Origin: Thermomicrobiales bacterium
Lineage (GTDB): Bacteria > Chloroflexota > Chloroflexia > Thermomicrobiales > UBA6265
NCBI GenBank assembly: GCA_034667245.1
Contig: JAXDKI010000512.1
Coordinates: 1-50,356, forward strand
Reading direction: 5' to 3'
DNA: 50,356 bases
The stretch's first letter is position 1, and each line of letters begins with the position of its first letter. The notes below the pieces were generated by a model, which was not told where the DNA came from, searched no databases, and saw only the letters and a program-made list of their open reading frames with translations. Below are positions 956-13,068 of the stretch, in pieces. A program made the position numbers and the translations under genes.

Positions 956-3163
956 TTAGTAGTCGCCACCGAGGAAGGGGCGGCCTTTGAGGCCGTCGGC
1001 GGGGCCGACGTGGCCCTCGTCCTCCATGCGCTCGATCAGGCGGGCGGCGCGGTTGTAACCGATGCGGAGGCGGCGCTGGAGCATAGAGGCGGAAGCGGTG
1101 CCCTGCTCCCGGACGATCCCCAGTGCCTTCTCCATCATTGGGTCGTCTTCACCCTCTTCGTCGACGGCGTTGCTGCTCGGAAGTTCCATCCACTCCTTGG
1201 CGTACTGCGGGATCGGCGCGACCGCGTGCCAGTGGCCGACGACGTATTGGACATCCTTGTCCTCGATGAAGGCGCCCTGGATACGTTGTGGTTTGGCGGC
1301 GTCGGGCGGCATGAAGAGCATGTCGCCGCGGCCGAGGAGGCGCTCGGCGCCGGGCATGTCGAGGACGACGCGGCTATCGGTGAGCGAGGTGACGGCGAAG
1401 GCGATGCGGGCGGGGACGTTGGCTTTGATCAGACCGGTCAGGACGTCGACCGACGGTCGCTGGGTGGCGATGATCAGGTGGATGCCGGCGGCGCGGCCCA
1501 TCTGGGTCAGGCGACAGAGGAGGGTTTCGACCTCGTCGGGGGAGGTCATCATCAGGTCGGCCAGCTCGTCGAGGATGACGACGAGATAGGGGATGCGTTC
1601 GGCCCCCGGTTCGTCGGTGATCTTCAGGCGGTAGCCGTCGATGTTGCGGACGGCGTTTTTGGCGAAGAGGTCGTAGCGGCGCTGCATCTCCTGAACGACG
1701 AGACGGAGGGCGCCGACGACTTTGTCCATCTCGGTGACGACGGGGCATTGGAGGTGCGGGACGCCGTTGTAACCGACCAACTCGACCATCTTGGGGTCGA
1801 TCATCACCATCTTGAGCTCGTCGGGGCCGCGGGTCAGGAGGAAGGTCGAGATGATGGCGTTGAGACCGACGCTCTTGCCGGCGCCGGTCGCGCCCGCGAT
1901 GAGGAGGTGCGGCATCTTCGTCAGGTCGTGGATGACGTAGCGGCCGTTGACGTCGCGCCCGAGCGGGACCGGCAGCTTCGCCTTGCTGCGGGCGAATTGC
2001 GGCGATTCCAGCGTCTCGCGGAGACCGACCGTGGCCACCTGGGCGTTCGGAATCTCGAGTCCGACGCGGGCCATGCCGGGCACGGGGGCCTCGATCCGGA
2101 TGCTGGGGGCGGCGAGGGCGAGGGCGAGGTCGTTCTGCAGCTCGGTGATGCGACGGACTTTGATGCCGACGCCTGGCTCCAGTGTGTACTGCGTCACGGC
2201 AGGGCCGGGGTTGATCTCGCGGACGCGGGCCTCAACCTTGAAGCTGGCGAGGGTGTGCTCGATCAGCCGGGCCTTCGCTTCAAGGTCGACCGTGTCGAGG
2301 CTGACGGTCTCGTAGTAGGCCAGACGGGCGACGTCCGGGAGGGGCATCGGCTCGCCGGGAGCGACCGGCGCTACTTTTGGCAGCGTGGAGGTCGAGGTCG
2401 CGGGGGCGGGTTTCGGTTCGGCTTTTGGGATGTTGATCACCGGTGCCGCGGGCGGTATCTCAGGCCTTGCCTGCGGCTTGACGGTCTTGGCCGGTAACGC
2501 GACGACGGCGACCGGCTCCTCCTCGAGCTCCTCGAATTCGTCCTCCGATGGTGCAGGCCAGAGGACGCGGAGGTCGCGGTAGAGGGTCAGGACGTCGGTG
2601 TCGGCGAGGAGAAAGACGCCGAAGGCGCCGGCGACGAGGAGGACGAGTCCGGCGCCGACCTGACCGAGGGCACCACGCAGGAGGGTGGCAACCGCGAGCC
2701 CGAGTTGTCCGCCGTCGCTCACTGCTGATTGCTCGGCGGCGAGCTGGAAGAAGCCGACGATGGCGAGCCCGAAGGCGGCACCGCCGAGATAGTGGCGGGG
2801 CAGCAGGATGGGACCTTCCTGGGTGCGAAAGGCGCGGAACGCGATCGCGAGGAGGAGGATGGGGACGAGGAAGGCGCCCTGACCGCAGACGGCGCGAAGG
2901 GTGTTGCCCCACCAGGTGACGAGACTGCCGTCCGCCTCGCGGTTGCCGAGGACCCAGGCACTGAGGAGGGCAACCAGGAAGAGGACGACCGCGGTGATCT
3001 CCCGCCGCAAGCGGTCGGAGACGACGAGATCGGGCATCAAGGAGGAGAACCCGCGGCCGACCGCGCGCAGGCGGGCGGTCAGGGGAAAGGTCTCCTCTAC
3101 CACTTCGAGGCGTTGGGCTTTTCTGGCGGCCGACCCGGCCCGAACCTTGGTCTGCGTCGCCAT
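956..3163 (-). CDS. ftsK: DNA translocase FtsK/SpoIIIE
   Basis: N-terminal TM segments and a Pro/Ala-rich linker, then Walker A 'GATGAGKS', Walker B 'LVVILDELADL' and a gamma wHTH 'MLQRRLRIGYNRAARLIERME'. The ORF is open to 3199, but ATG 3163 has AGGGAGA 8 nt upstream. Confidence 0.9.
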   Translation of the reverse strand: MATQTKVRAGSAARKAQRLEVVEETFPLTARLRAVGRGFSSLMPDLVVSDRLRREITAVVLFLVALLSAWVLGNREADGSLVTWWGNTLRAVCGQGAFLVPILLLAIAFRAFRTQEGPILLPRHYLGGAAFGLAIVGFFQLAAEQSAVSDGGQLGLAVATLLRGALGQVGAGLVLLVAGAFGVFLLADTDVLTLYRDLRVLWPAPSEDEFEELEEEPVAVVALPAKTVKPQARPEIPPAAPVINIPKAEPKPAPATSTSTLPKVAPVAPGEPMPLPDVARLAYYETVSLDTVDLEAKARLIEHTLASFKVEARVREINPGPAVTQYTLEPGVGIKVRRITELQNDLALALAAPSIRIEAPVPGMARVGLEIPNAQVATVGLRETLESPQFARSKAKLPVPLGRDVNGRYVIHDLTKMPHLLIAGATGAGKSVGLNAIISTFLLTRGPDELKMVMIDPKMVELVGYNGVPHLQCPVVTEMDKVVGALRLVVQEMQRRYDLFAKNAVRNIDGYRLKITDEPGAERIPYLVVILDELADLMMTSPDEVETLLCRLTQMGRAAGIHLIIATQRPSVDVLTGLIKANVPARIAFAVTSLTDSRVVLDMPGAERLLGRGDMLFMPPDAAKPQRIQGAFIEDKDVQYVVGHWHAVAPIPQYAKEWMELPSSNAVDEEGEDDPMMEKALGIVREQGTASASMLQRRLRIGYNRAARLIERMEDEGHVGPADGLKGRPFLGGDY

Positions 3164-3419
3164 GCGCGCGATCTCCCTGATTGGGCCGCCGCCCAACACG
3201 GCGTCGGGCGAGGGGGCGGGTCTGCGTCACGGCGGGGAACGCGAACACGCGGGGGCGTACGTTCAGCGTGTACGTTGAGTATACACGAGGAATGACGAGG
3301 TTAGGTGCTTGTTCTGAGCGACGAGTTCGTGGGCCAGACCTGGCTTCGGCGATTGGGCCGGCGGGAGGTTGATTCGGCGGGTGCCGACGGGATCCGTGCG
3401 TGCGGTCCCACCGAGACGA

Positions 3420-3475
3420 CCCTCACCCCCGGCCCCGCTCCGCGGGAGCGGGGAGGGTTGTTCTGGGGGTGGGTG
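3420..3475. repeat. REP/MITE-like hairpin repeat (CCCTCACCCC head plus GC-rich stem-loop), copy 1
   Basis: Head 'ccctcaccccc' is followed by a perfect 9-bp stem, ccccgctcc (3433..3441) / ggagcgggg (3445..3453). An outer partial complement 'gggggtgggtg' follows. Related copies lie at 7358..7403 and 42600..42640. Confidence 0.6.
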
Positions 3476-3657
3476 CCAACTGGCGGCGTCGGGTGGCGGT
3501 GGGGACGAACGGAACAATCCGGGTGGTGGTGGTCGGTGACCAACCGAGGCAGGATAGGCCCTGCCCAGGCCCGCACGCCGTACCTCGTGTGCCACTTGGA
3601 GGTGATATTAGAGTATTATTTCTATGTTGTCAATACGTTGACCGCGATACCCGGCGA

Positions 3658-3686
3658 TTGACTCGCCCGCTGGTCCGGTCTATGAT
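3658..3686 (+). promoter_or_regulatory. Sigma70-like promoter for the carbonic anhydrase gene
   Basis: TTGACT (3658..3663), 17-nt spacer, TATGAT (3681..3686), in an AT-richer stretch about 60 nt upstream of the GTG start. Confidence 0.5.
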
Positions 3687-3745
3687 TGATAACTGGATCA
3701 AGATTTTAGGTATACCCATCGAGGAAGCCTGAGGAGAGGGTCATC

Positions 3746-4240
3746 GTGTCAGTCTTGGACGAGTTCCTGGCCGCGAACGCGCAATACGCCGCCGGTTTCA
3801 CCAAGGGCGATCTGCCGATGCCGCCCGGACGCCGCGCCGCGGTTCTGGTCTGCATGGATGCGCGGATCGACCCGGCGAAGGCGCTCGGGCTCGAAGAGGG
3901 GGATGCGCACGTCATCCGCAACGCCGGTGGGCGGGCCAGCGACGACGCGATCCGCTCCCTCGTCATCTCCTACAAACTCCTCGGCACCCGCGAGTTCGCC
4001 GTCATCCACCATACCGACTGTGGGATGCTGACCTTCACCAACGAGCAGTTGCGCGAGCAACTCAAGCGCGACCTGGGGGCAGATGCCTCGGCGATCGACT
4101 TCTTGCCCTTCAGCGACCTCGACGAGGGCGTCCGCCGTGACGTGGCGACCATCCGCTCCTCGCCCCTGGTCCCGGAGGATATTCCCGTCCGCGGCTTCGT
4201 GTACGACGTGCGGTCCGGACAATTGCGAGAAATCGCCTGA
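3746..4240 (+). CDS. Beta-class carbonic anhydrase
   Basis: 164 aa with zinc-ligand motifs C-x-D-x-R ('VCMDARI') and H-x-x-C ('HHTDCGM'). GTG start with GAGGAGAGGG just upstream. Confidence 0.85.
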
Positions 4241-4435
4241 GCCGCCGTTGGGCGACTCGGCCTTGGGTACGCTGGCAACGATCTGAGTGAGGTTGCCGGC
4301 CGCGCCCTCCAACAAGGATGGTAGGGTTCAGAGCAATCTTCGCCGAACTCGACGATCAAGGAGCGAACCAAGCGGCAGAGCAGGAGAACAGATCCTCGCT
4401 TCAGGATTTCCTCACAGAGATCAGGGTGTGATGCG

Positions 4436-4657
4436 TTAGGCGGCGGTGAGGGCAGCTTGAGCCAGCTGGACCAAGGACGCGCCCTCAGCGACCATGACCA
4501 TTTCACCATCTGGATCGTTTTTCAAGAGCGCCCAGGACGCGACGTAGTCTGGTCCGTGGGCATCCAGCGAGGCCAGCACCAGCGCAAGGGCTTCCTCTTC
4601 GGTGTCCCAGGCGTTGATGATGCTAGCGGCTTCCTGATGCCAGAGTTCGTAGGTCAT
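4436..4657 (-). CDS. Hypothetical small protein (73 aa)
   Basis: Internal ATG of the 4436..4780 ORF is preceded by GAGGGGA. The acidic helical sequence 'MTYELWHQEAASIINAWDTEEEALALV...' matches no family I recognise. Confidence 0.45.
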   Translation of the reverse strand: MTYELWHQEAASIINAWDTEEEALALVLASLDAHGPDYVASWALLKNDPDGEMVMVAEGASLVQLAQAALTAA

Positions 4658-4864
4658 TGCCTGTCCCCTCGGGTCGAAGGAGAGAGCAGAGCAGTTTAAC
4701 GCGTAAATCCGGGACCTGCACCGACGCGAAGTTGGGGGAAGGTACCCGGGAAATTTCGGGTAGAGTGTACCGCGAACCACGACATTGGGTTACCTTTCTG
4801 AGCGAGGTAGAGAGTTAGGGTTTAGAGTCGATTCGGTGTTCTCGAACGAACAAGGAGTGCGGCG

Positions 4865-5227
4865 ATGGCAAAGCCGAATCGCCTGTTCGAGATGAGTTAT
4901 CGCCTGCATTCGCTCGCGCTTGCCGAACCTTTTCCGCAGGGCACCAGAACTGTCGGACCAACGGGTGGACTGGTCGTATGTGACGGGCAGCAGTGGTGTG
5001 GACGAACGATCTGGGTCGAGAAGCGAATGGGACGTGTTGCGACATCGGACCGGGTCATCGCCGAGGTACGAGAGTGGGACATCGATGACACGCCCGTTCT
5101 CGCCGCCGTGTTTCCTCATCTTCGCCCTGGAACGCACGAGGTTTTTGAGAGCGACTTCGGAGAACTCGGACGGAGTGCCGAGGTGATCGTCGATGCCGGC
5201 AAGGTTGTCTGGTTGAACTGGAGCTAG
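4865..5227 (+). CDS. Hypothetical protein (120 aa)
   Basis: ATG is preceded by AAGGAG with a 7-nt spacing. Codon pattern looks coding, but no recognisable motifs. An antisense ORF (4790..5137) was judged less likely. Confidence 0.55.
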   Translation: MAKPNRLFEMSYRLHSLALAEPFPQGTRTVGPTGGLVVCDGQQWCGRTIWVEKRMGRVATSDRVIAEVREWDIDDTPVLAAVFPHLRPGTHEVFESDFGELGRSAEVIVDAGKVVWLNWS

Positions 5228-5334
5228 AGGCGAGCTGCGACACGGTCATGAAACACGCTTGACCCGATCGGTAGTACGCTCCTCCCAACACCCCCACCTC
5301 CCCTGTTTTTCCATAGCTCACCCCCTTGCGTGGA

Positions 5335-5350
5335 TAGAACATTTGTTCTA
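5335..5350 (+). promoter_or_regulatory. LexA (SOS) box of the GAAC-N4-GTTC (Cheo) type, inside a candidate promoter
   Basis: 'TAGAAC-ATTT-GTTCTA' has perfectly palindromic 6-bp arms. It fills the 17-nt spacer between TTGCGT (5326..5331) and TACTCT (5349..5354), about 90 nt upstream of imuB. Confidence 0.65.
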
Positions 5351-5441
5351 CTCTACTGAGCAGGGCGCACGGATGGCGTGTCCGGACGCTTAGCGATGGC
5401 TCTGTGCGGCTTGCCGAGGGGCTGGAAGGGAGGTCGTAGCG

Positions 5442-6629
5442 GTGACCGTTGCCTGCATCTACATCCCGCATTTTGCCTTGCGGATGGCGTTGCTGGAGCG
5501 ACCGGGGCTCGATGGGGTGCCGCTCGTCCTGACCTCGCCGCCGAGTAGCCGGGTCGTGGTCGCGGATTGCACGCAAGAGGCGGTGGACCGGGGGATCAAG
5601 CCGGAGATGCCGTTGCGGGAGGTGACGGCACTCTGCCCGGAGGCGGTCTTTATCCAGCCGAACCCTGCCCGCGATGCGGCCGCGTTTGACCGGATCGTCG
5701 ATGCCCTGGAGAGCTTCAGTCCGTTCGTCGAGCCGGGAGAACCGGGGTGCTGCTACGTCGATCTTCAAGGGCTGGAGCGCCACGACGCGACGGTCGAGGA
5801 TGCGGTCACTCGCTTGCTCGGCCTCGTCCCGCCGGCGTTGCGACCGCGGGCCGGGGTAGCGCCGGGCAAGTTCACGGCCTGGGTGGCGGCGCGCCGGGCG
5901 CCTCCGGGTGGATTCCGGACCGTCGCACCGGCCGAGGTCGTGTCGTTCCTCACTCCGGGCCCGATCGACTGGTTACCGCTGACGGACGAGCTGCGGCAGC
6001 GGCTCGGTCGCCTGGGATTGCGGACGCTCGGTGAGTTCGCGGCGTTGCCGGTGTCGGCGGTTCAGGCGCGGTTCGGACCGGAGGGGCGGCGCGGCTGGGA
6101 GCTGGCGAACGGGCGGGACGAGGCGGTCGTCCGGCCGCGCGAGCGGATCGAGACGGTGGTCGAGAGGCTGACCTTGCCTGCACCGGCGACGAGTCGGGAG
6201 ACGCTGCTGATCGGCTTGAAGCGACTGATCGTCCGTGCCTTCGGGCGACCGGAGCTGCGCTTTCGCACCGTTCGACAGGCGCGGTTGCGGGTCCTGATCG
6301 AGGAGAACCGCTCCTGGGAAAAGGAGATGACGTTCCGTGAGCCGGTTGGGCGGGAGCGGGTGATCGAGGTGCTGGGTCACCGGCTGGCGGCGATCGAGTT
6401 ACCGGGGGCGGCCGAGGCGATGTCGTTGGAGTTGATCGGGCTGACGGCGGAGACGGCTCATCAGGAGTTGCTGCCGGGGCTGCGGTCGCGGCGGATGCGG
6501 CCGCTGGTCGAGGTTGCCCGTCAGTTGAAGCAGCGGTACGGGGAATCACCCCTCTACCGCGTCGTGGAGGTAGAACCATGGTCGCGGATTCCAGAACGTC
6601 GTCACGCGCTGCTGGCCTACGACCCCTGA
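5442..6629 (+). CDS. imuB: ImuB-like catalytically inactive Y-family DNA polymerase
   Basis: 395 aa with Y-family-like N-terminal architecture. The first motif 'ACIYIPHFALRMAL' lacks the catalytic acidic residues. GTG start with GGGAGG 8 nt upstream. It sits directly upstream of dnaE2 and downstream of a LexA box. Confidence 0.8.
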   Translation: MTVACIYIPHFALRMALLERPGLDGVPLVLTSPPSSRVVVADCTQEAVDRGIKPEMPLREVTALCPEAVFIQPNPARDAAAFDRIVDALESFSPFVEPGEPGCCYVDLQGLERHDATVEDAVTRLLGLVPPALRPRAGVAPGKFTAWVAARRAPPGGFRTVAPAEVVSFLTPGPIDWLPLTDELRQRLGRLGLRTLGEFAALPVSAVQARFGPEGRRGWELANGRDEAVVRPRERIETVVERLTLPAPATSRETLLIGLKRLIVRAFGRPELRFRTVRQARLRVLIEENRSWEKEMTFREPVGRERVIEVLGHRLAAIELPGAAEAMSLELIGLTAETAHQELLPGLRSRRMRPLVEVARQLKQRYGESPLYRVVEVEPWSRIPERRHALLAYDP

Positions 6630-6856
6630 ACGCGCCACGGCTGGTGCGGGTGCTGACGGGAGACGGGTTGCCGATCGCGGTCGTGGAGGGGGAACGGCGC
6701 CGGGCGGCGCAGATCGAGGACGTTTGGTACGTGGACGACGAGTGGTGGCGCGAGCCGATCGCCCGGCGCTACTACCGGTTGTTCCTCGACGGTGGCGTGG
6801 TGCGGACGGTCTACCACGATGGAGAACGCGACGAATGGTTCGCGCAGGGGTATTAG
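6578..6856 (+). CDS. Small conserved-looking protein (92 aa) between imuB and dnaE2
   Basis: ATG is preceded by GGAGG with a 7-nt spacing. It overlaps the imuB 3' end by 52 nt in the -1 frame. The Trp/Arg-rich core reads 'EDVWYVDDEWWREPIARRYYRLFLDGGVVRTVYHD'. Confidence 0.55.
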   Translation: MVADSRTSSRAAGLRPLNAPRLVRVLTGDGLPIAVVEGERRRAAQIEDVWYVDDEWWREPIARRYYRLFLDGGVVRTVYHDGERDEWFAQGY

Positions 6857-7037
6857 CCCGAACAAGCAGGCCGACATCGATCGTAGGCGTACGGCTGTGC
6901 TTCATCTGTTCCACCTTCTCCGCGATCACGACGCCTCGTATCTATCCCCGATCTGTCCCCGACGCCGTTACCCCCAGCAGGGCGCACGGCGGTGCGCCCC
7001 TACAGATCCTGGCACGGGATGCCCCAATCGGTAGGCT

Positions 7038-10000
7038 ATGGCCGACAAAGTCGAGTATGTCGAACTTCACCTCCATACCGCCTTTTCCTTTCTCGATGGG
7101 GCGTCGCTGCCCGACGAGTTGGTGGGGCGGGCTGTCGAACTCGGTTATCGCGCACTGGCGGTGACCGACCATGACGGGTTGTATGGGGCGATGGAGTTTG
7201 CGCTGGCGGCGAAGGGTGCCGGGATCGCGCCGATCACTGGTGCGGAGGTGACGCTGACCGACGGCACGCATCTGACGCTGTTGGCGGAGACGCAGCAGGG
7301 GTATGCGAATCTTTGCCGGCTGATCACGGCGGCGCATCATGCGGGGCTTGGTAGCAGCCCTCACCCCCCGGTCCCCTCTCCCGACCACGGGAGAGGAGGG
7401 GACGGCGATCGTTCGAATATCCCTTTTGAACTCCGTGGCATCGGGAAGTCGAAGCCGCTCTACAGGCCGGAGGATCGCACGCCGCGCCTCGATCCCGCGC
7501 TGATTCCGGGCCATGCCGAGGGGTTGATTCTGCTGACCGGGTGCCGGCAGGGGCGTCTCTCTCAGTCCGTCGATGCTGATCAGCGGCAGGAAGCGGAGGC
7601 ACTCCTTAGTGATTACGTCAACTGGTTTGGCAAGGACAATGTGGTCGTCGAGCTTCAGCAGAATCGGGTCTACGGGGATGGGCGGCGGACGCAGGGGTTG
7701 GTTCATCTGGCCGAGCATCTTGGGTTGCCCTATGCCGCGACCGGGAACGTCCATTACCACCGGCAGGAGCGGCACCGGCTTCAGGATGTTCTCGTCGCGA
7801 TCAAACACCGAACGACGCTCGACCATTCGCACCGCGAGCGGCGGCCGAATGCGCAGTTCTATCTCCGCTCTGCGGAGGAGATGGGGAAGCTTTTCGAGCG
7901 CTATCCGGCTGCGCTGACGACAACCGGCCGGATTGCGGAGCGGTGCGCGAAGTTCGATCTGACCCGTGATCTGGACTACGCATTCCCCGACTACCCGACC
8001 GAGAACGGCGAGACCCCGGGCGCGATGCTGGCCCGCGTCTGCCGCAAGGCGTTGGCGGAACGCTATTCCGAGGAGCAACGAGAGGCAGCCGAGCGGCGAT
8101 TGTGCGAAGAGCTGGCGGTGATCGAGCGGCACAAGCTCGGCGGGTTCTTTCTCCTCTATCGCGATCTGCTGCTGCTGGCACGGGAGGTCGCCGACGAGGT
8201 GCGCGGTGTCGACAGTGCGCGAAGTGCGGCCAATCTGCCGCCGGGGCGGGGGCGCGGGTCATCGGTCAGCTCGATCGTCTGCTACTTGATCGGGCTCTCC
8301 CACATCGACCCGGTGAAAAACAATCTCTTCTTCGGCCGCTTCCTCAACGAGGAGATGTACGCCGTCCCGGACATCGACCTCGACTTCCCACGGGAGATCC
8401 GGGAGCGGTTGATCGAGCGGGTCCACGAGAAGTACGCCGACCGCGCCGCGCTCGTCTGCGCCTTCTCGACCTACAAGCTGCGGAGCGCAGTGCGCGACGT
8501 CGGGAAGGCGCTCGGTCTGCCGCAGCCGGACATCGACAAGATCGCCAAGCTCAGCGAGCCGCGCTCCGCCCACGATCTGAGCCGGGAGCTCGACCGCATC
8601 CCCGGGTACGCCGAACGGAAGGACAACCCGCCGTGGTCTCACCTCGTCGAGCTCGCCGATCAGCTGGCGGGATTTCCGCGCCATGTCACCCAACACGTCG
8701 GCGGGATGGTGGTCGCCGCGGGCTCGCTTTGCCAGATCGTGCCGGTGCAACCGGCCGCGATGGAGGGGCGCTTCCTCTGCCAGTGGGACAAGGACTCGTG
8801 CGACGACGCCCGGATGGTCAAGATCGACTTCCTGGCGCTGGGGATGCTCTCGCTGGTCGAGGAGTGCCTGGAGCTGATCGCGGCCTCCACCGGGAAGACG
8901 GTCGATCTCAGCCGGATCAACTTCAATGACCCGGAGGTCTACGAGATGATCTGTAAGGGGGACACGGTCGGCGTCTTCCAGATCGAGAGTCGGGCCCAGA
9001 TCCAGATGCTGCCGCGGACGCGGCCGAAGAGTCTGGACGATTTAGCGGTCCAGGTCGCGATCGTCAGGCCGGGACCGATCATCGGCGGCGCGGTGACGCC
9101 GTACGTCGCGCACCGGCAGCAGGAGCGGACGAGTTTCCTGCCGATCGAGCCGCAGTACGACCACGAGTGTCTCAAGGAGGTGCTGGCAGAGACGCACGGG
9201 GTGGTGCTTTTTCAGGAGCAGGTCCTGCAGGTGGCGATGGCGTATGCCGGGTTCACGCCAGGCGAGGCGGAGGGATTCCGGCGGGCGATGAGTCGCAAGC
9301 GCTCACAGGAGGCGATGGCCGCCCTCAAGGAGAAATTCATCACCGGCGCCGTTGCGAAGCACCAAACGACGAAACACCAAGTGACGCACGCGGAGGCTGA
9401 GAAGGTGTTTACCAAGCTGGCAGGTTTCGCGAGCTACGGGTTTCCTAAAGCCCACGCGACGGCGTTCGCGCTGCTGGCTTACCAGTCGTGCTGGTTGAAG
9501 CACTACTACCCCGCGGAGTTCACCTGCGCCCTGCTCAACAACCAACCGATGGGGTTCTACCCGCCGCACGTGCTGATCAACGACGCCAAGCGGCACAAGC
9601 TGCGCGTCCTGGCGCCCGACGTGAACCTGAGCGGTGTCCGTTGCAATCTCGACGGGGGGAACGGGATCCGGATCGGGTTGGGGTACGTCAAGGAGCTGGG
9701 GGAGGAGCCGGCGCAGCGAATCGTGCTCGAGCGGGAGGCGAACGGGCAGTACCGGTCGCTGGCCGATCTCGTCCGGCGGGTGCCGCTGCCGACCGCGGCG
9801 GTTGAGAACCTGATCGCGGTCGGGGCGTTCGACCGCTTCGGGCTCGGGCGGCGGGAGGCGCTCTGGCAGTTGGGGCTCTTTATCCCCTCGCAACGCTTCG
9901 GGACCAAACAGACGACGGCGAACGGCCGGCAGATCCCGCTGGCGCTGCCGGTTGGGCAAGACGGCGTCGAGTTGCGGCCGATGGGTGCCTGGGACCAGAT

Positions 10001-10478
10001 GGCGGCCGACTACGCGGTGCTCGGTCTCTCGCCGCGTTATCACCCGCTCGGGTTGCTGCGCTGGCGGCTGCCGCAGCACTTCGTCACGGTCGCCGATCTG
10101 GAGCGTCTGCCGCACGGGGCGGAGATCGAGATCGCCGGGTTGACGGTCTGCCGGCAGCGACCGGGGACGGCGAAGGGGATCACGTTCCTCCTGTTGGAGG
10201 ACGAGCACGGGTTGGTGAACGTGATCGTCTACCCGGACCTCTACGAGCGGCAGCGGATGGTGGTCCGCGGCGAGCCGTTCATCGTGGTGACGGGGACGCT
10301 GCAGAAGCAAAACGACACGATCAACGTGATCACCCGCCAAGTCAGGCCACTGGAGAACGCCCGGCAGGAGTTTGCGGCGGCACCTGCCCGCGATCTGGAC
10401 GACGTCACCGCGCCCTTCGAGCCGGAACGAGAACGGGAGCTGGCGACGGTGTCGCCGGAGTCGCATAACTACCGGTGA
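7038..10478 (+). CDS. dnaE2: Error-prone DNA polymerase III alpha-like DnaE2
   Basis: 1146 aa. PHP domain 'VELHLHTAFSFLDGAS...VTDHDGLYG', pol III alpha core ('GRGSSVSSIVCYLIGLSHIDP', 'PDIDLDF', 'GVFQIESR') and a C-terminal OB region. Genetic linkage to imuB. Confidence 0.92.
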   Translation: MADKVEYVELHLHTAFSFLDGASLPDELVGRAVELGYRALAVTDHDGLYGAMEFALAAKGAGIAPITGAEVTLTDGTHLTLLAETQQGYANLCRLITAAHHAGLGSSPHPPVPSPDHGRGGDGDRSNIPFELRGIGKSKPLYRPEDRTPRLDPALIPGHAEGLILLTGCRQGRLSQSVDADQRQEAEALLSDYVNWFGKDNVVVELQQNRVYGDGRRTQGLVHLAEHLGLPYAATGNVHYHRQERHRLQDVLVAIKHRTTLDHSHRERRPNAQFYLRSAEEMGKLFERYPAALTTTGRIAERCAKFDLTRDLDYAFPDYPTENGETPGAMLARVCRKALAERYSEEQREAAERRLCEELAVIERHKLGGFFLLYRDLLLLAREVADEVRGVDSARSAANLPPGRGRGSSVSSIVCYLIGLSHIDPVKNNLFFGRFLNEEMYAVPDIDLDFPREIRERLIERVHEKYADRAALVCAFSTYKLRSAVRDVGKALGLPQPDIDKIAKLSEPRSAHDLSRELDRIPGYAERKDNPPWSHLVELADQLAGFPRHVTQHVGGMVVAAGSLCQIVPVQPAAMEGRFLCQWDKDSCDDARMVKIDFLALGMLSLVEECLELIAASTGKTVDLSRINFNDPEVYEMICKGDTVGVFQIESRAQIQMLPRTRPKSLDDLAVQVAIVRPGPIIGGAVTPYVAHRQQERTSFLPIEPQYDHECLKEVLAETHGVVLFQEQVLQVAMAYAGFTPGEAEGFRRAMSRKRSQEAMAALKEKFITGAVAKHQTTKHQVTHAEAEKVFTKLAGFASYGFPKAHATAFALLAYQSCWLKHYYPAEFTCALLNNQPMGFYPPHVLINDAKRHKLRVLAPDVNLSGVRCNLDGGNGIRIGLGYVKELGEEPAQRIVLEREANGQYRSLADLVRRVPLPTAAVENLIAVGAFDRFGLGRREALWQLGLFIPSQRFGTKQTTANGRQIPLALPVGQDGVELRPMGAWDQMAADYAVLGLSPRYHPLGLLRWRLPQHFVTVADLERLPHGAEIEIAGLTVCRQRPGTAKGITFLLLEDEHGLVNVIVYPDLYERQRMVVRGEPFIVVTGTLQKQNDTINVITRQVRPLENARQEFAAAPARDLDDVTAPFEPERERELATVSPESHNYR
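7358..7403. repeat. REP/MITE-like hairpin repeat, copy 2, in frame inside dnaE2
   Basis: Head 'ccctcacccccc' plus stem cctctccc (7375..7382) / gggagagg (7389..7396). It is translated as 'SSPHPPVPSPDHGRGGDG' in the DnaE2 frame. Confidence 0.6.
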
Positions 10479-11176
10479 GAGGGTGAACCGTTCTCGGGGG
10501 AACGCCGTCGCGCCTCGTACATGGCGCGAATCTTCGCGAAGTACGCGTCCGGTGCGATCTCCATGATCGCGTCGTCAGGATCGGGCAACGGCAATTCGCG
10601 AAGCCATCGCGGATCGACCCAGAAACCGGGTAAGACCAACGAGGGCTGAAGCCCTCTGCTATCCGGGGCAAGCGACTCATACAGACCATCCGCCGACAAG
10701 GAGAAGACCTCGAGGCGCTGCTTTCCCGGACGTGGATCGACCAACCAGTACTCGGGCACACCGGCACGTTGGTACGCGGCAAACTTGTCGCGACGATCGT
10801 AGGCTGCGGCGGAGTCCGACGTCACTTCCATCACGAGGTCGGCGGGACCCTCCAATCGCAGATCCGTCCGACGATCAAAATGCTCCCGGCGAACGAAGAG
10901 GATGTCTGGTTCCCGCGCCGAACCGTCCGCCAATCGCATCTCGAACGGAGCAACGATCACAACACCCAGATCATGCAAGCCGACAAACCGCTCAAGGAGC
11001 GAAGCGAGGAAGAAAATCACTCGCTGGTGCAACTCTCCCGGCGGCATGAAGACGATCACCTCACCGTCGACCCACTCGGCGTGAGTCGTGTCACCCGACC
11101 AGTCGAGGAACTCTTCGTAGCTCATTTTCAGACGCGGTAATTCGGTTGCAACAGTCTCGATTACTTGCCGGCCCAT
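10469..11176 (-). CDS. Uma2-family (DUF820) putative endonuclease
   Basis: 235 aa with family-typical 'YEEFL...AEWVDGEVIVFMPP', 'PDILFV', 'ADLVMEVTSDS' and 'KFAAYQRAGVPEYWLVDP'. ATG has AGGAGA 8 nt upstream. The convergent 3' end overlaps dnaE2 by 10 bp. Confidence 0.85.
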   Translation of the reverse strand: MGRQVIETVATELPRLKMSYEEFLDWSGDTTHAEWVDGEVIVFMPPGELHQRVIFFLASLLERFVGLHDLGVVIVAPFEMRLADGSAREPDILFVRREHFDRRTDLRLEGPADLVMEVTSDSAAAYDRRDKFAAYQRAGVPEYWLVDPRPGKQRLEVFSLSADGLYESLAPDSRGLQPSLVLPGFWVDPRWLRELPLPDPDDAIMEIAPDAYFAKIRAMYEARRRSPENGSPSHR

Positions 11177-11391
11177 CGCAATAGTCTCCTGATTTTCCCC
11201 GGCAACGGCTGAAATCGCGAAGTCGTCACGTCGTCATGGTACAGCATCGCCAGCACGCATGAACCGCATCAGCGTCCACGACAAGACCACCTTCTCAGCT
11301 GCGTGGACCGAAGTTCAATCTCACGGTGCTCGGAGACTGCCCACAAGGATGAACCGGAGAGGCCGTTGGCCGCGGCACCGTCTGCGGCGGG

Positions 11392-13068
11392 TCAGACCTC
11401 CATCACCATGGGGAGGATCATCGGGCGGCGGCGCGTCTCCCGGTAGAGATAGGAGGCGGCGGAATCGCGAAGCTGGCGACTGAGGTACCCCCAGTCGTCG
11501 GTCTGGTGGCCGTTCGTGTACTCGCCGAGAGTTTCGCGGAGGTGCGCTTTGGTCGCCTCGAGCAGGCCGGCCGACTCCTTGGCGTAGACAAAGCCGCGGG
11601 TCAGGATCTCCGGTCCGGCGACGATCTGGCCGGTCTGCCGATCGACGCTGACGACGACCATGAGGATGCCCTCACGAGCGAGGGCGCGGCGGTCGCGGAT
11701 GACGACTTCGCCGACGGCGCCGACGGTGATGCCGTCGACGTAGACGAAGCCGGCGTCGACGCGGCCGGTAACCGCGACCTTGTCGGGGGTGACCTCGATA
11801 ACGTCGCCGACTTCGGCAAAGGTGATGAGATCGGACGGGATGCCGCGTTCCAGCGCGAGGTCGGCGTAGAGGGCCATGTGGCGGTGCTCGCCGTGGAAGG
11901 GGACGACGTGGCGCGGACGGACGAGATCGAGCATGTCGCCGAGCTCGTCGCGGCTGGCGTGGCCGGAGACGTGGACGAGGGCGCGGGCGCCGTAGATCAC
12001 TTCGGCCCCGGCGCGGAAGAGCTGGTTGATGATTCGATAGACGGCGGTCTCGTTGCCGGGGATCGGCGTCGCGGAGACGATGACGGTGTCGCCGGCACCA
12101 ACCTGGACCTCCCGGTGGTCGCCGTTGGCGATGCGGCCGAGGACGGCCATCGGTTCGCCCTGGCTGCCGGTGACGACGTAGACGATGCGGTCATCGGGCA
12201 GCAGCGCGGCTTCGCGGGACTCGACCAGGACGCCTTCGGGGTCGACGAGGTAACCGAGTTGACGGGCGACGCGGACGTTGTTTTCCAGGCTGCGGCCGAG
12301 GGTCGCGACCTTCCGACCGTGAGCGGCGGCGACGTCAATGACCTGCTGGATGCGGGCGATCAACGAGGCGAAGGTGGCGATGATGATCCGCCCTTCCGCC
12401 TCGGCGAAGACCTCGTGGTAGGTCTCGCCGACGACGCGCTCCGAGGGAGTGCGGCCGGCAGATTCGACGTGGACGCAGTCGGAGATGAGCAGCCGCACGC
12501 CGCGATCTCGGAGTTCGGCGATCTTGGCGTAATCGGTGAGGCGCCCATCGATCGGGGTCTCGTCGAGCTTGAAATCGCCGGTGTGGACGATCAGTCCGAC
12601 CGGGGTGGTGATGCCGAAGCCGACGGCGTCGGGGATGCTGTGGCAGACGCGGAAGGGTTCGAAGCGAAAGGGACCGGCCTCCAGGACCGGATGCTGATCC
12701 GGGTCGAACTCGATCAACTCGGAACGGGCCAGCAGACCCGCCTCGTCGAGTTTGGCCGAGATCAGACCGAGGGTGAGTTTGGTCGCGTAGATGGGTGCCG
12801 GGAGGTCGGGGAGGAGGTAGGGCAGGGCGCCGATGTGGTCCTCGTGACCGTGGGTGACGAAGATGGCGCGGACGCGGTCGGCCCGCTCGCGCAGGTAGGC
12901 GATGTCGGGCAGGACGAGGTCGACCCCTGGTTGCTCCTCGTGGGGAAAGCCGACGCCGCAGTCGACGACGACGATGTCGTCCTCGTATTCGAGCAGGAAG
13001 AGGTTGCGACCGACTTCGGCGATGCCGCCGAGGAAGATCAAGCGAACAGGTGAGATGCTCATCAGCAT
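11392..13068 (-). CDS. rnj: Ribonuclease J
   Basis: 558 aa with metallo-beta-lactamase motif 'HGHEDHIG', a beta-CASP region and a C-terminal domain. The start could instead be the ATG 6 nt downstream. Confidence 0.92.
   Translation of the reverse strand: MLMSISPVRLIFLGGIAEVGRNLFLLEYEDDIVVVDCGVGFPHEEQPGVDLVLPDIAYLRERADRVRAIFVTHGHEDHIGALPYLLPDLPAPIYATKLTLGLISAKLDEAGLLARSELIEFDPDQHPVLEAGPFRFEPFRVCHSIPDAVGFGITTPVGLIVHTGDFKLDETPIDGRLTDYAKIAELRDRGVRLLISDCVHVESAGRTPSERVVGETYHEVFAEAEGRIIIATFASLIARIQQVIDVAAAHGRKVATLGRSLENNVRVARQLGYLVDPEGVLVESREAALLPDDRIVYVVTGSQGEPMAVLGRIANGDHREVQVGAGDTVIVSATPIPGNETAVYRIINQLFRAGAEVIYGARALVHVSGHASRDELGDMLDLVRPRHVVPFHGEHRHMALYADLALERGIPSDLITFAEVGDVIEVTPDKVAVTGRVDAGFVYVDGITVGAVGEVVIRDRRALAREGILMVVVSVDRQTGQIVAGPEILTRGFVYAKESAGLLEATKAHLRETLGEYTNGHQTDDWGYLSRQLRDSAASYLYRETRRRPMILPMVMEV

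Follow-up and report, generated by a model that had tools for sequence, protein, structure and literature searches.

A small gene overlapping imuY in a Thermomicrobiales bacterium encodes the detached C-terminal domain of ImuB

In a stretch of 50,356 nucleotides from a Thermomicrobiales bacterium (contig JAXDKI010000512.1, the whole of which is called the window below), the 3' end of a gene for a Y-family polymerase homologue is overlapped by a small open reading frame, orf92, in another frame. What does this small frame encode, and how is it translated? The first-pass annotation, which called the longer gene imuB, offered three readings of orf92, namely an independent small protein made from its own Shine-Dalgarno (SD) sequence, a C-terminal module of ImuB split off by a real or artefactual indel, and the distal part of a long ImuB isoform made by -1 frameshifting. 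It also remarked that 395 plus 92 residues approach the length of canonical ImuB. The remark was a good lead, as the two products are collinear with canonical ImuB, and the first two readings turn out to be both right and to describe the same thing: the independently translated protein is the C-terminal module of ImuB. The genes are called imuY (product also known as iPolY) and imuB-C in the following.

All features lie on the forward strand, and the gene order in the window is imuY, orf92, dnaE2. The imuY gene (5442-6629) starts with GTG and encodes a catalytically inactive Y-family polymerase homologue of 395 aa. It is followed by imuB-C (6578-6856), a gene of the DUF6504 family with a predicted ATG start and a product of 92 aa, and by dnaE2 (7038-10478), which encodes an error-prone C-family DNA polymerase of 1146 aa. 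The geometry of the junction was largely described correctly at the outset. GGAGG is found at 6566-6570, 7 nt from the A of the ATG at 6578, and the overlap is 52 nt (6578-6629), with orf92 codons beginning at imuY codon position 3 and thus in the -1 frame. The orf92 frame, reported as open from 6530, is actually open from 6341, after a TGA at 6338-6340, and has no ATG, GTG, TTG or CTG between 6341 and 6578.

Since the GC content of the window is 65%, long spurious ORFs are common. However, orf92 is more than a chance ORF, because it is conserved among homologues. There are 19 close homologues of 70-94 aa, and 1547 cluster representatives reached E<=1e-3 in an exhaustive search with the profile, the 150 best-scoring of them being nearly all 70-130 aa long. 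In addition, 294 genomic matches were confirmed.

The gene encodes the detached C-terminal beta-domain of ImuB (ImuB-C, DUF6504). As orf92 alone matches no Pfam family at E<=1 and no NCBIfam model either, its identity was reached via family profiles. A profile of the orf92 family, over its positions 14-90, matched three canonical ImuB proteins from Alphaproteobacteria at their C-termini (E = 2.4e-7, 2.7e-7 and 7.8e-6), one of which is located in an annotated imuA-imuB-dnaE2 cassette, the records of the other two being unannotated there. The protein from the annotated cassette, Komagataeibacter ImuB, in turn matches the Pfam model PF20114 (DUF6504) at residues 382-460, with 31.6 bits against a cutoff of 24.2, and the same model is matched by 14 of 56 distant orf92-family members. 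PF20114 is the family of about 90 aa that the first-pass annotation had mentioned as a neighbour of imuB-like genes. The model covers the ImuB-C region of a canonical ImuB and shares with orf92 the motif W-x-[IV]-x-[DE]-EWW ... R-x-Y, but orf92 and its close relatives fall below its detection, and the Chloroflexota/Gemmatimonadota branch appears to be poorly detected by the current model. The missing Pfam match is a sensitivity failure of a single sequence against PF20114, and profile-level and transitive evidence points to membership of orf92 in DUF6504. A full-text search of the literature for 'DUF6504' gave no match.

The collinearity with canonical ImuB extends over both proteins. The tail of ImuY and residues 17-92 of orf92 together present, in the canonical order, the RecA-NT region, S.(I/V)PER, a linker, RLL.P.. 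and EWW..R.Y. The AlphaFold2 model of orf92 is confident (pLDDT 87.9) and all-beta; its six strands span residues 21-90, while the N-terminus is modelled with low confidence. A Foldseek search with this model against the PDB gave no match at E<=0.001, the best TM-scores being 0.2-0.4, and no SH3 or other fold was assigned. A search of PDB sequences with the family profile (hmmsearch) returned only chance matches to L13, at E about 0.3. Both results agree with the statement that ImuB-C appears to be a new beta-barrel fold (PMC12926913).

The overlap encodes the ImuY tail (P)WSRIPERRHALLAYDP, followed by the stop codon, in frame 0, and the ImuB-C leader MVADSRTSSRAAGLRPL in frame -1. Among 79 related loci that hold both genes, 59 have imuB-C in the -1 frame, and 53 of these have an ATG or GTG at exactly -52, with the same overlap length and frame. 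The proline codon of ImuY that supplies the A of the start codon is CCA in 48 of 55 loci, while CCA makes up 9.6% of the other proline codons of the same genes (p = 1e-41 in a naive binomial test, which treats related loci as independent and ignores shared ancestry). The two third-codon positions of ImuY inside the SD sequence are G in 90% and 96% of 48 aligned junctions; other nearby third positions are 40-58% conserved. In these junctions, the variable sites of the overlap as far as about +38 are third positions of ImuY codons. From +39 on, every position of the overlap is conserved, where one frame reads YDP and stop and the other LRPLN. The retention of the CCA codon and the -52 start at synonymous sites argues for independent initiation, and conservation points to ATG 6578 as the probable start codon. 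The small protein would then be translated on its own from this ATG and the GGAGG at 6566-6570, both embedded in the conserved ImuY codons V-E-V-E-P-W. Its first 13 residues or so would be an unconstrained and probably disordered leader, with a sequence dictated by the ImuY reading frame, and the functional domain would begin at LRPLN.P, exactly at the imuY stop. A conserved hairpin that masks the SD sequence or the AUG was considered and rejected: the local hairpin of the window is not conserved, and among 48 loci, pairing involves the SD in 30 and the AUG in 27. The RNAalifold consensus over the 48 junctions is essentially empty, and the overlap region of the window folds no better than shuffled sequences (MFE z = +0.71).

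Other explanations of the junction have to be weighed against independent translation. The two products would be collinear with a fused ImuB also if a recent or artefactual indel had disrupted a once-fused imuB, leaving orf92 as a pseudogene remnant or the result of a sequencing error. Such errors do occur in this type of data, since one long-read MAG relative has an apparent frame break inside imuB-C. Yet each of the 79 loci that hold both genes has them as two separate ORFs, even where ImuY identity is as low as about 32%, with ImuY homologues ending like the frame-0 tail and orf92-like genes standing apart, the arrangement that the first-pass annotation had anticipated for a separate partner gene. 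Moreover, the overlap length is identical in the 53 loci mentioned above, and the third-position variation pattern and the conserved domain columns indicate purifying selection on both proteins. As to the suspected indels across the overlap, there are none in the contigs of four independent soil metagenome runs, which cover 6498-6987 without inserted or deleted letters (the run search listed DNA-type soil and rhizosphere metagenome contigs only). On comparative sequence data, the indel reading is already refuted, and its probability is close to nil. The split of ImuB is old, natural and widespread. In Gemmatimonadota relatives, imuY and imuB-C are adjacent in frame +1 or 0 without overlap, in one Chloroflexi locus about 880 nt are inserted between them, and naturally fused ImuY-ImuB-C proteins are found in two Thermomicrobiales MAG fragments. 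Of the second reading, the identity of the module stands, backed by the profile and PF20114 matches, but the origin from a recent or artefactual indel does not. It is also very improbable that the -52 ATG is unused and that translation of imuB-C begins only beyond the imuY stop, for example at GTG 6644 with a product of 70 aa. An automatic gene caller did record the 70-aa product for this very sequence (P0006), and residues 1-13 are poorly conserved among distant relatives and of low confidence in the model. However, LRPLN.P (residues 14-20) lies upstream of GTG 6644, is nearly invariant also in lineages without overlap, and aligns to RLL.P of canonical ImuB. No SD-like sequence precedes 6644, and the -52 ATG and its SD are the elements maintained at synonymous sites.

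The remaining reading, a programmed -1 frameshift near the end of imuY, would yield a fusion of about 471 aa (ImuY plus ImuB-C residues 17-92), alongside or instead of the 92-aa protein. The shift would most likely occur by slippage in the P site on C_CCC_UGA (6622-6629). The imuY stop is most often found in the context GAC CCC TGA, CCCC permits tRNA-Pro to re-pair in the -1 frame with the stop codon in the A site, and slippage at this point would restore collinearity with ImuB, because the conserved part of ImuB-C begins exactly at the imuY stop. The -1 relationship with overlap is itself conserved in 59 of 79 loci, and the fused proteins of the two MAG fragments indicate that a fused product can be functional. 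Nevertheless, a scan of the imuY frame between 6341 and 6629 found no X_XXY_YYZ heptamer, in line with the earlier impression for 6530-6629, and the sole run of identical bases in the overlap is the CCCC at 6623, before the imuY stop. Proline codons in the two frames fully account for this run, and several loci have lost it (CCTCTGA, GCCTGA, CCGTAG) while retaining the overlap. The RNA downstream is neither conserved in structure nor unusually stable. Fusion by frameshifting is impossible in the many relatives where ImuB-C is encoded in frame +1 or 0 or at a distance of about 880 nt, and in several relatives a stop codon in the orf92 frame is located 6 nt upstream of the ATG. Finally, selection on the SD and ATG at synonymous sites makes sense only for independent initiation. 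As neither a slippery heptamer nor a conserved stimulatory RNA structure was found, and relatives use other frames, the proposed long ImuB isoform is unsupported, and we regard such a frameshift as very improbable. There is likewise only a very slight chance that the overlap serves as a recoding switch, with some ribosomes slipping -1 at C_CCC_UGA to make full-length ImuB beside the separate subunits. If this were true, translation would determine how much of the mutasome scaffold is fused and how much is split. For independent translation, in contrast, the retained SD and ATG speak directly, and the first of the three readings was in this respect right.

Taken with its surroundings, orf92 is very probably imuB-C, the independently initiated middle gene of an imuY-imuB-C-dnaE2 operon that is preceded by an SOS box. 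ImuY matches the Pfam IMS family (E = 2e-18) and has sub-threshold DinB-family matches in NCBIfam, but it lacks the catalytic Asp/Asp/Glu residues. In an alignment with E. coli DinB, VDMD is replaced by IYIPHF, so that D8 and D10 are absent, and D103/E104 align to C-C. By alignment with three canonical ImuB proteins, the C-terminus of ImuY carries a RecA-NT-like motif, RPLVEVARQLKQRYGESPLYRVV (residues 353-375, positions 6498-6566), with the common pattern L..L..R.G...LYR..PV. Directly 5' of it, QELLPGL (residues 341-347, positions 6462-6482) is, by position and resemblance, a candidate beta-clamp-binding motif. Related proteins have QELLEGF or QETLDGF at this site, and M. smegmatis ImuB has 352-QLPLW-356 immediately before its RecA-NT motif (PMC11791113). 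The order of clamp motif, RecA-NT, linker and ImuB-C in mycobacterial ImuB is the same as here (PMC11791113).

DnaE2 matches the NCBIfam model NF004225 'error-prone DNA polymerase' with 1018.7 bits (cutoff 939) and contains PHP, DNA_pol3_alpha, finger and HHH_6 domains. The flank is long enough in 70 related loci, and in 60 of these a dnaE2 homologue directly follows imuB-C. About 90 nt 5' of the imuY start, at 5335-5350, there is a LexA-type box, TAGAACATTTGTTCTA, with a GAAC-N4-GTTC palindrome. Of 74 related loci, 44 have the same box (consensus TAGAACATATGTTCTA) 40-230 nt 5' of the Y-family gene. LexA may thus bind at 5335-5350 and place the operon under putative SOS control. The operon is surrounded by two small ORFs without Pfam match, a carbonic anhydrase gene and a gene for a Uma2 protein, and no RecA/ImuA-like gene is found among its immediate neighbours. 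The idea that orf92 could itself be an ImuA substitute was rejected, as nothing in the protein resembles RecA and its homology is to ImuB-C.

Going by published AlphaFold models and by experiments in mycobacteria, ImuB-C would dock on the PHP domain of DnaE2. The RecA-NT motif of ImuY may recruit RecA in place of the missing ImuA, and ImuY may tether the complex to the beta clamp for damage-induced error-prone synthesis. The protein-protein contacts in this scheme are taken from published models of related systems. The synthesis of the two halves is probably coupled, because ribosomes that finish imuY pass over the imuB-C start, and the overlap may in this way help to keep the halves of the split ImuB in step.

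The finding mostly closes the question raised by this locus, since the short 'imuB' and orf92 together make up a split ImuB that belongs to a mutagenesis cassette with DnaE2. Cassettes of this kind have been described computationally since 2013-2019, and their action has been shown in Deinococcus. The only unusual feature of orf92, and a minor point, is the position of its start codon, which many bacteria have retained 52 bases within the preceding gene. As a natural case of dual coding, the overlap is a clean one, with a start codon and SD sequence long held by synonymous-site selection inside a conserved protein motif. It also matters for annotation: gene callers shorten imuB-C to avoid the overlap, so that the recorded 70-aa call loses the conserved LRPLN.P, and the Pfam DUF6504 model fails on this branch. 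Related bacteria have ImuB-C either as a separate protein or fused to ImuY or to DnaE2, which supports published proposals that ImuB originated in a fusion event and that its C-domain makes contact with the PHP domain of DnaE2.

The locus is a typical representative of the known imuY(iPolY)-imuB-C-dnaE2 'split ImuB' cassettes. Stand-alone ImuB-C together with iPolY and DnaE2 has been reported for the Kyrpidia tusciae type (DnaE2-iPolY-ImuBC-RecA; Timinskas & Venclovas 2019, PMC6511836) and in a 2026 NAR survey (PMC12926913). Deinococcus deserti and D. ficus have the arrangement lexA-imuY-imuB-C-dnaE2, and there is experimental evidence for damage induction and induced mutagenesis for Deinococcus imuY and dnaE2 (PMC8072749). 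The locus described here shares with these cassettes the order of inactive Y-family polymerase, small ImuB-C (about 80-90 aa) and DnaE2, the RecA-NT-like motif at the Y-family C-terminus, the lack of an imuA gene adjoining the operon, and SOS-type control, presumed here from a LexA-type box and with a lexA gene in the operon in Deinococcus. In contrast to the Deinococcus cassette, the operon here does not include lexA, and only the presumed operator is present. Other differences are the host, a soil Thermomicrobiales-like Chloroflexota bacterium, and the conserved dual-coding overlap, in which imuB-C starts 52 nt before the end of imuY and which is not mentioned in the published accounts PMC6511836, PMC12926913, PMC8072749 and PMC11791113.

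The canonical ImuA(ImuA')-ImuB-DnaE2 mutasome of Mycobacterium, Caulobacter, Pseudomonas and Myxococcus contains the same elements in the same N-to-C order, namely a dead Y-family core, clamp motif, RecA-NT, linker and ImuB-C. It also has DnaE2 as the partner polymerase and is damage-inducible, as predicted here from the LexA-type box. It differs in that ImuB is a single polypeptide, whereas here it is two, split within the linker, and only 25-28% identical to canonical ImuB. It also differs in having ImuA, for which there is no gene next to the operon here; RecA has been proposed in the literature as the ImuA substitute in split-ImuB systems. More distantly, E. coli Pol V (UmuD'2C-RecA) and B. 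subtilis YqjW-YqjX likewise combine a Y-family subunit, a small beta-rich accessory subunit and a RecA contact via a RecA-NT motif for SOS-controlled mutagenic bypass. Unlike in those systems, the Y-family subunit of the split-ImuB cassette is catalytically dead, and synthesis would fall to DnaE2.

In the window, imuY (5442..6629, + strand) and orf92 (6578..6856, + strand), listed as ORFs of 395 aa and, from an ATG, 92 aa, overlap by 52 nt, with orf92 in the -1 frame relative to imuY and a GGAGG Shine-Dalgarno (SD) sequence (6566-6570, +) 7 nt ahead of its ATG. These features of the first-pass annotation are borne out by the ORFs and sequence of the window, but the orf92 frame, described there as open from 6530, actually follows a TGA at 6338-6340 and opens at 6341. 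Between 6341 and 6578 it contains no ATG, GTG, TTG or CTG, so that no start codon is available before 6578. At 6338, three of the four metagenome runs have C for T, which changes the bounding TGA to CGA and leaves the first available start codon unaffected. The only run of identical bases within the overlap is CCCC at 6623, directly ahead of the imuY stop. An indel at the junction had been raised earlier as one possibility; contigs from four independent soil-metagenome runs have no inserted or deleted letters there, which rules out misassembly as the source of the frame offset.

Searched by itself, orf92 has no Pfam or NCBIfam match. Its 19 close homologues are 70-94 aa long, and an exhaustive profile search of the family, with a cutoff of E<=1e-3, returned 1547 cluster representatives; among the best 150 listed, nearly all are 70-130 aa. 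DUF6504, which is the domain family of about 90 aa mentioned in the first-pass annotation, is matched by 14 of 56 distant members. It also scores above threshold at C-terminal residues 382-460 of a canonical ImuB whose gene lies in an annotated imuA-imuB-dnaE2 cassette on a Komagataeibacter plasmid. Over positions 14-90, the orf92-family profile hits three canonical ImuB proteins in their C-terminal domains (E = 2e-7 to 8e-6), and canonical ImuB is collinear with the ImuY tail plus residues 17-92 of orf92. The AlphaFold2 model, built on the family alignment, is confident (pLDDT 87.9) except at the N-terminus, where confidence is low, and has six beta strands between residues 21 and 90; neither a fold relative of the model nor a sequence relative of the profile was found in the PDB. 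Taken together, profiles, DUF6504, collinearity and model match the ImuB-C of the literature. An independent small protein and a split-off ImuB C-terminal module, proposed earlier as separate readings, are both right and the same thing. In the distant relatives P0077 and P0084, long low-complexity insertions, e.g. repeated GDTGDGGQGDAE(T/K)RRR, separate the N-terminal LRPLN.P motif from the beta-domain, which suggests that motif and barrel are distinct functional elements on a tolerant linker.

The arrangement is conserved. Of 294 confirmed genomic matches to the family, 80 were kept, labelled mostly as Thermomicrobiales and other Chloroflexota, and Gemmatimonadota. Wherever both genes were present, in 79 related loci, imuY and imuB-C are separate ORFs, over a range of ImuY identity to the window protein from 87% down to about 32%. 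The -1 relation is found in 59 loci, and in 53 of these the position of an imuB-C start codon (ATG in 48, GTG in 5) gives an overlap with imuY, stop codon included, of exactly 52 nt. In Palauibacter and other Gemmatimonadota the genes are adjacent in frame +1 or 0 without the 52-nt overlap, and in a Chloroflexi MAG (CFX8; L075, 5117-6000) about 880 nt separate them. ImuB-C must then be its own polypeptide where frameshift fusion is impossible, and a (K/A)LRPLN.PRP motif shortly after its start is conserved in these lineages also. On this comparative evidence the genes are split, not broken. In a long-read MAG relative (L062, 6001-6283), imuB-C passes from the -1 frame to frame 0 after its first ~30 codons, probably because of a 1-nt indel error or because the gene is a pseudogene.

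The junction also bears on how ImuB-C is translated. In the ImuY frame, the alignment reads GTG GAG GTn GAr CCA TGG TCn CGn ATn CCn GAr CGn CGn ... TAC GAC CCC TGA. Variation is concentrated on ImuY third positions (40-56% conserved), so that the first ~13 ImuB-C residues are a passenger of the ImuY frame. The exceptions are the A of the orf92 ATG (88%, the remainder mostly G, giving GTG) and two third-position G's within GGAGG (90% and 96%). At the ImuY proline codon, 48 of 55 loci have CCA, against a share of only 9.6% among the other proline codons of the same genes; the naive binomial p of 1e-41 is inflated by shared ancestry, but the signal is still clear. From +39 all positions are conserved, with constrained residues in both frames (Y-D-P-stop and L-R-P-L-N). 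Selection for an internal initiation site would be expected to leave such a pattern. Being encoded within the conserved ImuY motif V-E-V-E-P-W, the start is probably locked, and it is reasonable to suppose that ribosomes reading through it would couple the synthesis of ImuY and ImuB-C. No hairpin masking the SD or AUG is conserved across the junctions. The public collection's sole version of the window ImuB-C (P0006, 70 aa, 6644-6856) starts at GTG 6644, avoiding the overlap and losing the conserved LRPLN.P motif; such calls are probably a systematic start-site mis-annotation in the family.

Alternatively, a -1 ribosomal frameshift at the end of imuY could join ImuY to ImuB-C, a reading raised earlier and supported solely by the geometry of the overlap. 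There is one candidate site, a P-site slip on C_CCC_UGA, but the proline codons of both frames account for its CCCC, which is missing from several loci that retain the overlap. As already noted in the first-pass annotation, there is no X_XXY_YYZ heptamer in the imuY frame near the overlap, nor is any RNA structure conserved at the junction. Several relatives have a TGA in the orf92 frame 6 nt ahead of the ATG, which would confine any shift to the 52 nt. We consider the frameshift very improbable, and favour separate translation of the two proteins.

Fused forms occur in other MAGs. In L085 1-1038 (P0170) and in P0154, two fragments with 61% mutual identity from different Thermomicrobiales MAGs, ImuY and ImuB-C share one frame (...VEPWSRLPERRYSMMPYEP-MPADEPKSINMPKSIDIE...EEWW...), joined just past ...PYEP; L085 retains CCATGG, and the -1 frame from there closes after 20 codons. 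In L086 (463-2032, P0130), ImuB-C continues in frame, after a linker of about 25 aa, into the PHP domain at the DnaE2 N-terminus, and the fused gene begins 52 nt within the upstream imuY (1-514), the usual overlap. The latter hints, as a Rosetta-stone pointer, at an ImuB-C/PHP contact. The fusions come from single short contigs (L086 is one of 2 kb) and are to be confirmed.

The upstream protein carries a Y-family IMS domain. In an alignment with E. coli DinB, its N-terminal Asp pair is missing and Cys-Cys stands opposite D103/E104; the protein is a dead polymerase of the ImuB/ImuY type. At its C-terminal end, ...QELLPGL-RSRRM-RPLVEVARQLKQRYGESPLYRVVEVEPWSRIPERRHALLAYDP aligns with the RecA-NT region, and the S.(I/V)PER...ALAP stretch after it, of the three canonical ImuB. 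Downstream, dnaE2 (7038..10478) passes the NCBI cutoff for 'error-prone DNA polymerase'. About 90 nt before imuY, TAGAACATTTGTTCTA (5335-5350) is a near-perfect 16-bp GAAC-N4-GTTC palindrome of the LexA/Cheo-box type; among the related loci scanned, such a box (consensus TAGAACATATGTTCTA) lies 40-230 nt 5' of imuY in 44 of 74, and is absent from Gemmatimonadota. No imuA-like gene flanks the operon in the window. The neighbours are FtsK/SpoIIIE (956-3199, -), a beta-class carbonic anhydrase (3746-4240, +), two small ORFs between the latter and imuY without Pfam match (4436-4780, -; 4865-5227, +) and, directly downstream of dnaE2 on the opposite strand, a Uma2-family putative endonuclease (10469-11176, -). 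Long antisense or off-frame ORFs, e.g. one of 396 aa antisense to dnaE2 (6942-8132, -) and one of 387 aa (9303-10466, -), are numerous in 3000-12000; they look typical of 65% GC DNA and are probably not genes.

ImuB-C has been described as the beta-rich C-terminal domain of ImuB, also stand-alone in SOS contexts (Aravind et al. 2013, as cited in PMC6511836), and is present in iPolY-ImuB-C-DnaE2 operons without imuA (PMC6511836). None of PMC6511836, PMC12926913, PMC8072749 and PMC11791113 describes the dual-coding start with its conserved 52-nt overlap, the term 'overlap' having been checked in PMC6511836 and PMC8072749 only; it is a modest point, relevant mainly to annotation. The fusions agree with two published proposals, an origin of ImuB by the joining of a Y-family protein to ImuB-C and a contact between ImuB-C and the DnaE2 PHP domain (PMC6511836, PMC12926913). 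Deinococcus has lexA-imuY-imuB-C-dnaE2 cassettes, in which UV mutagenesis requires imuY and dnaE2 (PMC8072749), and a 'DnaE2-iPolY-ImuBC-RecA' system has been presented with ImuB-C as part of a split ImuB (PMC12926913). The locus is a metagenomic example of an already known system.
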